DNA from: Escherichia coli
Lineage (GTDB): Bacteria; Pseudomonadota; Gammaproteobacteria; Enterobacterales; Enterobacteriaceae
Length of the DNA stretch: 64,000 bases
Assembly (NCBI RefSeq): GCF_003334385.1
Contig: NZ_QOWN01000025.1
Direction: 5' to 3' (one strand)
Below, piece after piece: positions 6,701 to 64,000 of the stretch (position 1 is its first letter; the number at the start of each line of letters is the position of its first letter). A model generated the notes under the pieces. The model had not been told where the DNA came from and did not search any database. It saw nothing but the letters and a program-made list of their open reading frames with translations. A program made the position numbers and the translations under genes.

Positions 6701-6875
6701 TTTCCAGCGTCTGGGCCGATGCGCCGGGATAGTTAGCGGTCACTCGCACATTCGGTGGCGCGAGATCGGGGTATTGTTCAACGGGCAATGAAAAAATCGC
6801 CAGGGTACCTGTCAGACACAACAGGATTGCCAGCACCCAGGCAAAAATGGGGCGATCAATAAAGAAATTCGCCAT
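3762..6875 (-). CDS. acrD: RND aminoglycoside efflux pump AcrD
   Basis: 1037 aa; 12-TM RND transporter; sequence matches AcrD. Confidence 0.95.
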
Positions 6876-6945
6876 TAAAAGAGGACCTCGTGTTTCTGCG
6901 TATCGTTGTAGGCTTGACTTGCTTCACTGTAGCGGCAAGGTACGA

Positions 6946-6963
6946 GCCAATCGTGGAGAAAAA
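6946..6963 (-). promoter_or_regulatory. candidate BaeR box upstream of acrD
   Basis: Reverse complement reads tttttctccacgattggc, matching the remembered BaeR consensus TTTTTCTCCATDATTGGC; about 70 bp upstream of the acrD start. Confidence 0.5.
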
Positions 6964-26148: not shown

Positions 26149-26335
<187 letters not shown>

Positions 26336-49048: not shown

Positions 49049-49150
<102 letters not shown>

Positions 49151-60824: not shown

Positions 60825-61100
60825 ATGACTTATTCTTTAAAACAATTAAAGGTTTTCGTCACAGTAGCGCAGGAGAAAAGTTTTAGTCGTGCAGGAGAGC
60901 GTATCGGCCTGAGCCAGTCGGCAGTGAGTCACAGTGTGAAGGAACTGGAAAATCATACTGGTGTTCGCCTGCTGGACAGAACCACGCGTGAAGTGGTGCT
61001 TACAGATGCAGGGCAGCAGCTGGCTTTGCGTCTTGAGCGACTGCTGGATGAACTGAACAGCACGTTGCGCGATACCGGGCGTATGGGGCAACGATTATGA
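60825..61100 (+). pseudogene. yfeR: LysR-family regulator YfeR, truncated to the N-terminal HTH domain (about 91 codons)
   Basis: [42 protein letters not shown]... is a LysR HTH; the ORF stops at a TGA overlapping the xapB ATG; no co-inducer-binding domain follows. Confidence 0.8.
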
Positions 61101-62353
61101 GCATCGCGATGCGCTTAAAGGTAATGTCCTTTTTGCAATATTTTATCTGGGGGAGCTGGCTGGTTACCCTCGGCTCTTACATGATTAATACTCTTCATTT
61201 CACCGGCGCTAATGTTGGCATGGTTTACAGTTCCAAAGGGATCGCCGCGATTATTATGCCTGGTATAATGGGGATCATCGCAGACAAATGGCTGCGCGCA
61301 GAACGTGCATACATGCTGTGTCACCTGGTGTGTGCGGGCGTACTTTTTTATGCGGCATCCGTAACTGATCCGGATATGATGTTTTGGGTGATGTTAGTCA
61401 ATGCGATGGCGTTTATGCCGACTATTGCGTTATCGAACAGCGTCTCTTATTCCTGTCTTGCCCAGGCAGGGCTTGACCCGGTGACCGCTTTCCCGCCCAT
61501 TCGCGTTTTTGGTACGGTGGGGTTCATTGTCGCGATGTGGGCAGTAAGCCTGCTGCATCTGGAATTGAGTAGTCTGCAGCTGTATATCGCGTCCGGTGCG
61601 TCATTGCTGCTGTCGGCTTATGCGCTGACTTTGCCGAAGATTCCGGTTGCGGAGAAAAAAGCGACCACATCGCTTGCCAGCAAGCTGGGTCTGGATGCCT
61701 TCGTGCTGTTTAAAAATCCACGCATGGCCATCTTTTTCCTCTTTGCCATGATGCTGGGTGCGGTACTGCAAATTACCAACGTTTTTGGTAATCCGTTCCT
61801 ACATGATTTCGCCCGTAACCCGGAGTTTGCTGACAGTTTTGTGGTGAAATATCCCTCCATTTTACTGTCAGTTTCACAGATGGCAGAAGTGGGCTTTATA
61901 CTGACTATCCCATTCTTTTTAAAGCGATTTGGCATTAAAACCGTCATGCTGATGAGTATGGTGGCCTGGACGCTGCGCTTTGGCTTCTTCGCCTATGGCG
62001 ATCCGTCAACAACCGGATTTATTTTGCTGCTGCTGTCGATGATTGTTTATGGCTGTGCATTCGATTTCTTCAATATTTCTGGTTCGGTATTTGTCGAACA
62101 GGAAGTTGATTCCAGCATTCGTGCCAGCGCGCAGGGGCTCTTTATGACCATGGTAAATGGTGTCGGCGCATGGGTTGGCTCGATTCTGAGTGGCATGGCA
62201 GTAGATTACTTTTCGGTGGATGGCGTAAAAGACTGGCAAACTATCTGGCTGGTGTTTGCAGGATATGCTCTTTTTCTCGCAGTGATATTTTTCTTTGGGT
62301 TTAAATATAATCATGACCCTGAAAAGATAAAGCATCGAGCGGTGACTCATTAA
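61097..62353 (+). CDS. xapB: xanthosine permease (NupG-family nucleoside:H+ symporter)
   Basis: 418 aa; NupG-like sequence immediately upstream of xapR. Confidence 0.88.
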
Positions 62354-62405
62354 AAGGATTCGCGGCTCTGCTCTTCAGAGCTGCTTTTATGATAAAGGTT
62401 AATTA

Positions 62406-62564
62406 GTGAAAGATATTTTATTTTCTTCCGGCGTTGGTTTTGGTATTGGTGCTTTGTTTACAATCGTGCGCTTGCCTATTCCTGTACCAAATGTATTACC
62501 GGGTATATTATCCATTGTGTTTATGTATGTCGGATATCTGGTGGTGAAATACTTTATGCCATGA
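62406..62564 (+). CDS. candidate small hydrophobic protein (52 aa, GTG start) between xapB and xapR
   Basis: gtg...tga encoding VKDILFSSGVGFGIGALFTIVRLPIPVPNVLPGILSIVFMYVGYLVVKYFMP; weak SD aaagg 7 nt upstream; too short for the supplied ORF track. Confidence 0.35.
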   Translation: MKDILFSSGVGFGIGALFTIVRLPIPVPNVLPGILSIVFMYVGYLVVKYFMP

Positions 62565-62604
62565 TAATTTAATACGATGTATTTATTATATGGAGCACTT
62601 AATT

Positions 62605-63489
62605 ATGGAACGCGTATACAGAACAGATCTTAAGTTGCTCCGTTATTTTCTTGCCGTAGCGGAAGAGTTGCATTTTGGCCGCGCAGCAGCGCGTTTAAAT
62701 ATGTCTCAGCCTCCGCTCAGCATTCATATTAAAGAGCTGGAAAATCAACTCGGCACGCAGCTTTTTATTCGCCATTCGCGCAGCGTCGTACTGACACACG
62801 CGGGCAAAATCTTGATGGAAGAATCGCGTCGATTGCTGGTGAATGCTAATAATGTATTGGCTCGGATTGAACAAATAGGTCGGGGAGAAGCAGGGCGGAT
62901 TGAACTCGGCGTAGTGGGAACGGCAATGTGGGGACGGATGCGCCCGGTTATGCGGCGATTCCTCAGGGAAAATCCTAACGTTGACGTTCTTTTTCGCGAA
63001 AAGATGCCCGCGATGCAAATGGCCTTGCTGGAACGCCGCGAACTTGATGCCGGGATCTGGCGAATGGCGACAGAACCACCGACTGGTTTTACCAGCTTAC
63101 GGTTGCATGAATCGGCGTTTCTGGTGGCGATGCCTGAAGAGCATCATCTCTCATCATTTTCCACCGTCCCGCTGGAAGCGCTACGTGACGAGTATTTTGT
63201 TACAATGCCGCCCGTTTACACTGACTGGGATTTTTTGCAGCGAGTTTGCCAGCAGGTGGGATTTTCACCGGTTGTTATTCGCGAAGTTAATGAACCGCAA
63301 ACGGTACTCGCTATGGTCAGTATGGGCATTGGTATCACATTGATAGCGGACAGCTACGCACAAATGAACTGGCCAGGTGTCATTTTCCGTCCGCTCAAAC
63401 AGCGCATCCCTGCAGATTTATATATTGTTTATGAAACACAGCAGGTGACGCCCGCGATGGTTAAGCTGTTGGCTGCATTGACACAGTAG
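62605..63489 (+). CDS. xapR: LysR-family xanthosine-responsive activator XapR
   Basis: ORF 62590..63489; Met at 62605 gives 294 aa (MERVYRTDLKLLRYFLAVAEELHFGRAA...). Confidence 0.9.
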   Translation: MERVYRTDLKLLRYFLAVAEELHFGRAAARLNMSQPPLSIHIKELENQLGTQLFIRHSRSVVLTHAGKILMEESRRLLVNANNVLARIEQIGRGEAGRIELGVVGTAMWGRMRPVMRRFLRENPNVDVLFREKMPAMQMALLERRELDAGIWRMATEPPTGFTSLRLHESAFLVAMPEEHHLSSFSTVPLEALRDEYFVTMPPVYTDWDFLQRVCQQVGFSPVVIREVNEPQTVLAMVSMGIGITLIADSYAQMNWPGVIFRPLKQRIPADLYIVYETQQVTPAMVKLLAALTQ

Positions 63490-63565
63490 GTGAGGAGACA
63501 GGAATTGCCGGAAATAGTAGTCTGCTAAGTGAAGCGCATCAGGCAATTTCGCAAATCGCAGATAG

Positions 63566-63594
63566 CAAAAAAGCGCCTTTAGGGCGCTTTTTTA
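63566..63594. terminator. rho-independent terminator hairpin, copy 1
   Basis: aaaaaagcgcctttagggcgctttttt; sits in the duplicated 60-bp unit. Confidence 0.7.
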
Positions 63595-63722
63595 CATTGG
63601 TGGGTCGTGCAGGATGACTCGCTTCGCTCGCCCTTCGGGCCGTCGCCGCGAGCGGCTCCGTTGTTTCGCTGCGCTCAACTCAAACCTGCTGCAGGTTCGA
63701 ATCTTTGAGTATCGCAGATAGT

Positions 63723-63750
63723 AAAAAAGCGCCTTTAGGGCGCTTTTTTA
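63723..63750. terminator. rho-independent terminator of the val-lys tRNA operon, copy 2
   Basis: aaaaaagcgcctttagggcgctttttt immediately 3' of lysV on the minus strand. Confidence 0.8.
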
Positions 63751-63753
63751 CAT

Positions 63754-63829
63754 TGGTGGGTCGTGCAGGATTCGAACCTGCGACCAATTGATTAAAAGTC
63801 AACTGCTCTACCAACTGAGCTAACGACCC
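63754..63829 (-). tRNA. lysV: tRNA-Lys (anticodon UUU)
   Basis: Reverse complement reads GGGTCGTTAGCTCAGTTGGTAGAGCAGTTGACTTTTAATCAATTGGTCGCAGGTTCGAATCCTGCACGACCCACCA. Confidence 0.95.
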
Positions 63830-63832
63830 GAG

Positions 63833-63908
63833 TGGTGGGTGATGACGGGATCGAACCGCCGACCCCCTCCTTGTAAGGGAGGTGCTCTCCCAGCTGAGCT
63901 AATCACCC
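63833..63908 (-). tRNA. valY: tRNA-Val (anticodon UAC)
   Basis: Reverse complement reads GGGTGATTAGCTCAGCTGGGAGAGCACCTCCCTTACAAGGAGGGGGTCGGCGGTTCGATCCCGTCATCACCCACCA; 3-nt spacer to lysV. Confidence 0.95.
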
Positions 63909-63954
63909 ACTTCGGTACTTCACATTTTTACAAGAAATTTAGCTGGCGAGAAAG

Positions 63955-64000
63955 TGGTGGGTGATGACGGGATCGAACCGCCGACCCCCTCCTTGTAAGG
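63955..64000 (-). tRNA. valX: tRNA-Val (UAC), 3' portion only (truncated by window end)
   Basis: Same 3' sequence as valY, 46-nt spacer, runs off the window. Confidence 0.85.

Follow-up and report, generated by a model that had tools for sequence, protein, structure and literature searches.

What is the short duplication that separates lysV from xapR in Escherichia coli? In the window, by which we mean the whole stretch of 64,000 nucleotides analysed here, the 3′ end of a tRNA-Lys gene and the terminator of its operon occur twice, on either side of a GC-rich segment. The initial annotation suggested three readings of this arrangement: a scar left by a tRNA-targeting integrative element, a miniature element, or a structured small RNA. 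We propose that the block is a 156-bp unit of the tRNA-linked repeat (TLR) or RtT family that is subject to tandem-repeat turnover, has lost the outer helix of its family, and is dispensable and largely silent in E. coli. We put the probability of this explanation as a whole at roughly 85%. The features of the region are as follows.

62605 to 63489, + strand: xapR, convergent with the tRNA operon and given for context (open reading frame list; RefSeq annotation of identical DNA).
63555 to 63615: distal copy of the direct repeat (repeat search).
63565 to 63595, − strand: T2, the second copy of the terminator hairpin, bidirectional (folding, −19.1 kcal/mol).
63598 to 63615, − strand: orphan tRNA-Lys 3′ end, the last 18 nt (exact match).
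63598 to 63723, − strand: tRNA-linked repeat unit, or RtT-family element (Rfam RF00391; RefSeq ‘RtT sRNA’).
63628 to 63647, − strand: most conserved core, GGCGACGGCCCGAAGGGCGA, which includes hairpin 3 (CG-CCC GAA GGG-CG) (cross-family alignment).
63645 to 63656, − strand: internal hairpin 2 (GCCGC-UC-GCGGC), with a compensatory change of CG to UA in five sequences (RNAalifold).
63663 to 63679, − strand: internal hairpin 1 (GUU..GC/GC..AAC), with compensatory changes at three pairs (RNAalifold).
63680 to 63689, − strand: 5′ strand of the T-stem and first half of the T-loop, GCAGGTTTGA, with CCUGC in the 3′ copy as its predicted partner (RNAalifold).
63691 to 63703, − strand: inverted copy of the tRNA-Lys T-arm, GATTCGAACCTGC on this strand (13/13 complementarity; longer inverted copies in other genera).
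63711 to 63771: proximal copy of the direct repeat, made up of the last 18 nt of lysV, ATGT, terminator T1 and 12 nt (repeat search).
63721 to 63751, − strand: T1, the intrinsic terminator of the valU operon, with a 13-bp stem, the loop CUAAA and U6 (folding, −19.1 kcal/mol, z −5.7).
63754 to 63829, − strand: lysV, tRNA-Lys(UUU) (ARAGORN; Rfam tRNA, 79.2 bits).
63833 to 63908, − strand: valY, tRNA-Val(UAC), given for context (ARAGORN).

A repeat search of the window returned a 61-nt direct repeat whose two copies start 156 nt apart and agree at 60 of 61 positions, the sole mismatch being C/T at 63566/63722. The duplicated lysV end and terminator described in the initial annotation are thus real, with corrections of a single base each: the repeat measures 61 nt rather than 60, its tRNA part 18 nt rather than 17, and the unique GC-rich segment between the copies (63616 to 63710) 95 nt rather than 96. 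The tRNA part, TGGTGGGTCGTGCAGGAT, is identical at all 18 positions in its copies at 63598–63615 and 63754–63771, and this 18-mer is found exactly twice in the window, against 0.01 occurrences expected by chance. No further copy of the tRNA end or of the terminator palindrome is present in the window. The ARAGORN placement of tRNA-Lys bears out the earlier statement that one copy continues into an intact gene and the other is an orphan: the proximal copy runs into lysV, and the distal copy carries the 18-mer on its own.

The repeat reaches 43 nt past the end of the tRNA gene and includes the terminator. On folding, each copy forms the same 13-bp hairpin ending in U6, and an A-tract makes T1 bidirectional. 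A simple terminator scan flagged neither T1 nor T2, because the U-tract is absorbed into an A/U-extended stem, and direct folding was used for both. T2 is the first terminator met by the convergent xapR transcript.

Within the insert, the inverted copy of the tRNA-Lys T-arm that had been noticed earlier is exact: gcaggttcgaatc (63691–63703) is complementary at 13 of 13 positions to 63769–63781 in lysV. We interpret it as a remnant of the 5′ arm of the RtT family. The orphan 18 nt correspond to tRNA positions 59–76, that is, the second half of the T-loop, the 3′ strands of the T-stem and of the acceptor stem, and ACCA. Read along the minus strand, lysV is followed by AUGU, T1 (63751–63721), 12 nt, GATTCGAACCTGC and GCAGGTTTGA, and then by a core of about 65 nt, ATCCTGCACGACCCACCA (tRNA positions 59–76), AUGU and T2 (63595–63565). 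In effect, this unit, like the others of its family, is a T-arm split in its loop by the conserved core and placed after an inverted copy of the same host-gene end. A putative, Arg-rich open reading frame of 28 aa with a TTG start also lies inside the unit.

The Rfam search proposed for the insert in the initial annotation gave a match to RF00391 (RtT RNA) at 63598–63723 on the minus strand, which spans the full length of the model (1–130/130) with 47.3 bits and an E value of 5e-8, just above the gathering score of 45 bits. RefSeq annotates an ‘RtT sRNA’ at the same interval in E. coli genomes with identical DNA. A K-12-like genome has the identical lysV block under this annotation, together with other RtT features, of which one follows lysQ, another separates tyrT from tyrV and three lie behind tyrV. 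According to the account in PMC8144298, Egan and Landy first noticed tRNA-linked repeats in 1978, and the catalogue of Rudd (1999) lists 22 copies at 10 K-12 loci. By definition, the last 18–19 bp of such a repeat match the 3′ end of the stable-RNA gene upstream of it without a difference (PMC8144298).

The lysV unit resembles these repeats in most respects. It begins right after lysV and T1 on the same (−) strand, its last 18 nt are identical (18/18) to the end of the upstream lysV, and its core aligns with those of tyrT, lysQ, rrnB, Ser-linked and tmRNA-linked units. Its RtT score exceeds the Rfam threshold and the internal hairpins of the core are present; in the outer helix, cmscan marks non-canonical pairs. 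The Rfam match, the RefSeq annotation and the TLR literature together identify the block as a known and annotated family member, and we classify it as one 156-bp tRNA-linked repeat unit of the Rfam RtT family. A literature search on lysV together with xapR found nothing. No function has been accepted for tRNA-linked repeats since 1978, and the single claim of a function for a tRNA-linked unit has since been retracted (PMC8144298).

Relatives of the unit are widespread. A scan of species-representative genomes with the 20-nt core found 120 loci. For 95 core matches a tRNA lies on the same strand no more than 700 nt upstream, and 78 of these 95 finish with 17 nt or more that are identical to it, species-specific tRNA variants included (Tyr 45/53, Lys 32/37, Ser 1/1). 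The core GGCGACGGCCCGAAGGGCGA is common to these 78 units and to the aligned Lys-, Tyr-, Ser-, tmRNA- and 5S-linked units; in the rrnB T1–T2 spacer, for example, the same core is followed by the last 18 nt of 5S rRNA. Rfam RtT units also follow tRNA-Ser in Thioalkalivibrio and tRNA genes in Marinobacterium and Amphritea, and one lies directly after the tmRNA gene in an Oceanospirillaceae genome. The unit occurs behind Val-Val-Val-Lys in Citrobacter, Leclercia, Enterobacter, Klebsiella indica, Atlantibacter, Acerihabitans and others, and in the tRNA-Lys version of the Enterobacteriaceae the repeat unit includes the intrinsic terminator of the operon. From these distributions, the tRNA-linked repeat appears to be an old, Gammaproteobacteria-wide module that lies behind stable-RNA genes and ends in the last 18–19 nt of the host gene.

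This distribution bears directly on the proposal of an integration or excision scar, in which a tRNA-targeting element would have used the lysV 3′ end and the repeats would be attL and attR around a remnant. Such elements are indeed marked by direct repeats of a tRNA 3′ end, strains differ at the site, and the copied tRNA segment begins inside the T-loop, at position 59. One class of integrases crosses over inside the T-loop. Against this reading, the repeats enclose no more than 95 nt, neither an integrase nor cargo is present, and the repeat runs on through 43 nt of downstream DNA and duplicates the terminator. The same core stands behind Tyr, Ser, tmRNA and 5S genes, each time with the 3′ end of that gene, and since each host gene has its own end copied, the family is unlike the product of a site-specific integrase. 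Tandem arrays of two or three units occur, and the unit is found at the orthologous site in many genera. No larger insert was seen at the site among the genomes listed or inspected, and the inspected alleles differ by exactly 156 bp. We found no carriage of the unit by phages; plasmid matches were mostly chromosome-sized, non-mobilizable records, and no genuine plasmid carries the unit. We rejected the scar on the absence of cargo, the 43-nt trailer within the repeat and the range of host genes, and regard the chance that it is correct as negligible.

A comparison of the xapR–lysV spacer across E. coli genomes, which had been suggested as a check on the block, shows that it varies. The 156-bp block is present in some strains and absent from others, rather than being the invariant arrangement that would have pointed to an ancient fixed duplication. 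A query consisting of the xapR flank, the unit and the second repeat was covered to at least 80% in 1912 of 5,426 complete genomes, and a query consisting of the unit, lysV and valY in 2310 of 5,426, a few joined lysT-operon matches included. The queries were chosen so that only filled alleles pass 80% coverage, and the counts are approximate, as BLAST pieces were joined and a few lysT-operon matches reach that coverage. The unit is thus present at lysV in roughly 35–43% of the complete genomes and absent from roughly 57–65%. In an evenly spaced sample of 40 genomes, an RtT feature lies beside lysV in 15.

Empty alleles have exactly one repeat copy and are short by exactly 156 bp, and T2 is the only terminator copy left in them. 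Three flank haplotypes, carrying a K-12-type xapR, a divergent xapR, or a FlxA-like gene in place of yfeN-xapABR, were each found both filled and empty, always 156 bp apart; strains 5FA and Z1323PEC0011, for example, form a natural pair whose flanks are identical. At least three independent events are therefore needed. The number of units also rises above one: E. coli strain JNE23-011 has two units after lysQ, and two or three units occur in Citrobacter, Entomohabitans, Erwinia and Pantoea, with three in Pantoea. Alleles at lysV have zero or one unit, and those after lysQ have one or two. As DNA, the unit shows the behaviour of a tandem repeat. Units are probably gained and lost through slippage or unequal homologous recombination, with the 61-bp repeats as the sites of exchange.

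Copies at the two Lys loci are 95–99% identical in four comparisons, three of them within one genome and the E. coli pair being the window against K-12 lysQ, whereas copies at the orthologous locus of different genera are 83–92% identical. This likeness of the lysV and lysQ copies has the signature of gene conversion, which would homogenise the two loci. Because the unit lies behind Val-Val-Val-Lys in many genera, the empty alleles of E. coli are most simply explained as losses. Presence would then be ancestral, and the strains that have no lysV unit have most likely lost it.

The same observations can be set against a miniature mobile element, of the MITE type or of a kind specific to stable-RNA genes, inserted downstream of lysV. 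In its favour, a single conserved core recurs behind many different stable-RNA genes and across orders, strains differ in whether they have the unit, and Alcanivorax genomes contain dispersed copies of a related core that are not linked to tRNA genes. The dispersed repeat family implied by the earlier suggestion of a miniature element therefore exists, but the signs of mobility are missing. The unit has no terminal inverted repeats (the ends of 63616–63710, GACTCGC and TTTGAGT, share four complementary bases), and in place of a short target duplication there would be one of 61 nt, far above the length made by any transposase. Recombination between the repeats fully explains the filled and empty alleles, and gene conversion suffices for the Lys loci, since these share homologous flanks in the form of an identical tRNA and terminator. 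We know of no transposase or other partner for the unit. Insertion of a mobile element at lysV is in our judgement very unlikely.

Tandem-repeat turnover of a tRNA-linked repeat unit would account for the alleles at lysV; it does not explain the spread of the family to different stable-RNA genes, which leaves room for a more exotic origin. It is conceivable, if distinctly improbable, that the core of about 80 nt is, or descends from, a so far unrecognised kind of selfish module that specifically colonises the 3′ ends of stable-RNA genes (tRNA, tmRNA, 5S rRNA) across the Gammaproteobacteria. Such a module would each time rebuild inverted and direct copies of the last 18–19 nt of its host gene, by a process such as template switching or one mediated by RNA, and would mature through the host's tRNA-end processing. 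The lysV unit would then be a decaying fossil, and the Alcanivorax repeats a free-living relative.

For the RNA structure, we aligned 32 distinct Lys-type units from many genera and analysed them with RNAalifold. The predicted structure consists of a split T-stem (GCAGG with CCUGC), a UCG/CGA extension and three internal hairpins. Standard pairs are formed in 98% of the cells of the alignment, and compensatory changes occur at five pairs, in 22 cells in all. The observed covariation score was reached by none of 500 shuffles, and in controls with slid partners pairing fell to 28–48%. These compensatory changes support the three internal hairpins. The split T-stem (columns 49–53 with 136–140) is paired in 99% of cells and invariant in sequence. 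It remains a prediction that the 32-unit set neither supports nor contradicts, because the T-stem never varies. In Tyr-type units, the equivalent of hairpin 2 is CGUUGCC/GGCAACG.

The nested GC hairpins noted in the initial annotation, which had also proposed folding the insert, were upheld in part. The cgctcgc/gcgagcg and gccc..gggc stems can both be found in the insert, and the small hairpin reads GCCC-GAA-GGGC on the transcribed (−) strand. The minimum free energy fold of the single sequence (−46.3 kcal/mol, z −2.7) contains a long GCUCGC/GCGAGU hairpin that corresponds to the GC stem noticed earlier. We rejected this stem on comparison with other genera, which do not keep it and which support the GCCGC-UC-GCGGC pairing; the internal hairpins stand.

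The outer helix joins the 5′ inverted copy to the tRNA-derived 3′ end. Its duplex energy is −8.8 kcal/mol in the lysV unit, against a median of −19.7 kcal/mol in Tyr-type units. It is −17 to −18 kcal/mol in the Lys-type units of Erwinia, Rosenbergiella and some Enterobacter, and decayed in Lys units of the E. coli, Citrobacter, Leclercia and Atlantibacter type. This decay agrees with the non-canonical pairs marked by cmscan and with the marginal Rfam score of the lysV unit. Conservation of the hairpins with compensatory changes across the Enterobacteriaceae suggests some selection, which is at odds with a purely silent relic.

Is the unit transcribed? No sigma-70-like site was found in 63300–64000. 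In K-12, Agrawal, Mohanty and Kushner observed a full-length valU transcript of about 438 nt on Northern blots, which is the length expected for an end at T1, and a terminator probe detected no species beyond this transcript and the large species of the lysT cluster (PMC4176162). RNase P, and inefficiently RNase E, remove the terminator by cutting 2–3 nt after the lysV CCA (PMC4176162). The rrnB unit, which has an equivalent architecture, is transcribed when T1 is read through; it begins at an RNase E site 3 nt behind 5S and stops 3 nt beyond the repeated 18 nt (PMC8144298).

Since no promoter-like site is present and an effective terminator lies upstream, the lysV unit would be transcribed only upon read-through of T1. 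Such a transcript would fold into the split T-stem and three hairpins, and would be cut 2–3 nt after the tRNA-like CCA by the RNase P/RNase E activity that trims lysV. By analogy with rrnB and tyrT, a read-through lysV transcript would be cleaved behind each of the two CCA copies and terminate at T2, which may serve both as a back-up terminator and as the terminator of xapR. In its layout, the locus runs from lysV through T1, the structured core and the second lysV 3′ end to T2. Given the Northern blots, the lysV unit is likely to be at most a minor read-through product in K-12. The terminator-probe result argues against an abundant product and is compatible with one that is minor or made only under certain conditions.

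A functional, trans-acting small RNA would be such a product. Read-through of T1 would yield an RNA of about 125–156 nt, freed after the tRNA-like CCA, that acts as a regulator or sponge in the manner of the rrnB-linked RrB, which binds Hfq and CsrA, or of the 3′ trailer of glyW-cysT-leuZ. The internal hairpins, kept with compensatory changes across many genera, would fit such a role, as would the perfect complementarity of 63691–63703 to the tRNA-Lys T-arm. The 5S-linked relatives are read-through transcribed, processed, and bind Hfq and CsrA in vitro (PMC8144298), and RtT-annotated RNAs were differentially expressed in Klebsiella RNA-seq data (PMC4147364). Set against these points, the unit is missing at lysV from well over half of the complete E. 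coli genomes, with losses on three or more backgrounds, stands behind an effective terminator whose probe revealed no extra valU species (PMC4176162), has no promoter-like site of its own, and has a decayed version of the family's outer helix. The retraction mentioned above also weighs against it, as do the scores of 19 tRNA-linked units as CsrA binders, which were below 0.01 (PMC8144298). We consider a functional small RNA unlikely at this locus. Among the three readings first suggested, a structured small RNA comes closest, in that the block belongs to the RtT family and has conserved hairpins, but expression of this copy is doubtful. The E. coli lysV copy is probably a largely silent, decaying member of its family rather than an active regulator.

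It would be a mistake to present the lysV block as a new integration site or a new small RNA, and scans that use direct repeats of tRNA ends as markers of genomic islands should mask the TLR family. What the present analysis adds is modest: the polymorphism among strains, the concerted evolution of the Lys loci, the reading of the unit as a split T-arm, and the tmRNA-linked relatives. The family extends to tmRNA and tRNA-Ser genes outside the enteric bacteria. The presence/absence polymorphism at lysV, lost or gained on at least three flank backgrounds, provides matched natural knock-outs for tests of function.

A close counterpart of the lysV unit is the lysQ-linked repeat, which lies in the lysT operon and upstream of nadA. 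Its 156-bp unit is the same one, with 99% identity over the unit and the same flanking terminator, and the lysV and lysQ terminators have been described as identical (PMC4176162). It differs in lying at another chromosomal locus, in a distal repeat that is about 6 nt shorter, and in the occurrence of two units in some strains.

The RtT repeats of tyrT–tyrV (Egan & Landy 1978; Bosl & Kersten 1991; RF00391) have a homologous core with about two-thirds identity. Like the lysV unit, they lie directly after a same-strand tRNA, end in its last 18–19 nt and can be repeated in tandem. The arms of the tyrT unit match tRNA-Tyr, whereas those of the lysV unit match tRNA-Lys. The tyrT unit is 178 bp long, is present in 3.14 copies and has no intrinsic terminator; the lysV unit is 156 bp long, is present in 1.39 copies and includes one. 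The outer helix, in which the 5′ inverted copy pairs with the 3′ end, still measures 10 bp in Tyr units (about −20 kcal/mol) and is decayed in the lysV unit.

The elements rrA, rrB and rrF, between T1 and T2 of rrnA, rrnB and rrnD (PMC8144298), share their whole architecture with the lysV unit: a stable-RNA gene, T1, a structured spacer, an 18-nt copy of the gene's 3′ end, and T2. Their repeat spacing is 150 bp, against 156 bp at lysV, and their core is homologous to that of lysV (AACGTTGC..GCAACGGCCCGgAGGGTG). Unlike the lysV unit, they are linked to 5S rRNA, carry GGA motifs and are unmatched by RF00391; they are transcribed by read-through and bind Hfq and CsrA (PMC8144298). The 3′ETS-leuZ RNA, the trailer of the glyW-cysT-leuZ operon (cited in PMC8144298), likewise comes from the 3′ end of a tRNA operon transcript. 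Compared by description, it lies upstream of the terminator and is a base-pairing sponge released by RNase E, whereas the lysV unit lies beyond the terminator. Attachment sites in tRNA genes resemble the locus in having a direct repeat of the tRNA 3′ end, one copy of which belongs to an intact gene while the second is an orphan. The lysV repeats differ from them in enclosing no element, in including 43 nt of downstream DNA, and in belonging to a family that spans many genes.

The 156-bp unit behind lysV is not confined to that gene. It also occurs between lysQ and nadA (1347-1545 in L004 and 1380-1706 in L003, two comparison loci spanning this intergenic region), in one copy in K-12 and in two copies in strain JNE23-011, and the lysQ unit is 99% identical to that at lysV. 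The spacer between lysV and valY is 3 nt long in the window (63829/63833), as opposed to 4 nt, CUUC, in K-12-like genomes (1840/1845 in the K-12-like locus L001; PMC4176162).

Related units also lie behind genes for other stable RNAs. In a metagenome-assembled genome of Oceanospirillaceae (L118, 8832-9562), the tmRNA gene is followed directly by two RtT-family units, with scores of 58.7 and 48.3 bits, and the family therefore occurs directly behind tmRNA genes as well. The 3′ ends of both of these units (AATCCCGCCACCTCC) resemble a tRNA-like 3′ end in general. A unit with a homologous core was also seen in the T1-T2 region of rrnB (L130, a K-12-like rrnB 3′ end, 6760-6960), and this unit includes an 18-nt copy of the 5S rRNA 3′ end. 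The rrnB T1-T2 region is a terminator cassette in wide use in cloning vectors.

The core AACGTTGC..GGCGACGGCCCGAAGGGTGA is common to dispersed and tandem repeats in Alcanivorax sp. 24 and Alloalcanivorax xenomutans (L023-L027 and L046), where the tandem period is 74 nt. The repeats at these six loci have neither a tRNA 3′ end nor an upstream tRNA, and no RtT match was found in the four loci scanned (L023, L024, L026 and L046). These repeats may represent a free relative of the core that is not tRNA-linked.

Next to the unit, the xap region varies among strains. In O157:H7, BL21 and strain VG12A2 (L006, L007 and L008), a single FlxA-like gene stands in place of yfeN-xapA-xapB-xapR. The replaced stretch corresponds to 61093-63543 of the window, and homology resumes at 63544, 11 nt ahead of the repeat. 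Replacement and unit are uncoupled, with the unit present or absent at lysV independently of the FlxA-like gene. In the window's own strain about 2.6 kb is deleted, with a junction at approximately 61087-61092, within 60825-61100. What is left of yfeR is a truncated ORF of 91 aa, which abuts a position 10 nt ahead of where xapB starts (61097). The 3′ part of yfeR, yfeN and xapA are missing; K-12-like and ECCHD184 genomes have all three.

Further matches in the window, and an ORF inside the unit, are as follows (naRNA4 is an Rfam family of REP-derived nucleoid-associated RNA).

1413-1489, 26201-26282 and 49070-49112: Rfam matches at the gathering level, to naRNA4 in two places and to ES036 (CssrF) in one
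63592-63678, minus strand: arginine-rich ORF of 28 aa with a TTG start, MSAAKQRSRSRRRPEGRAKRVILHDPPM, inside the tRNA-linked unit

For this ORF, neither a ribosome-binding site nor translation is indicated. The tpr gene of the tyrT operon sits within the repeats of that operon. The arginine-rich ORF of the lysV unit is reminiscent of this ‘protamine-like’ gene, which is named in a preprint.
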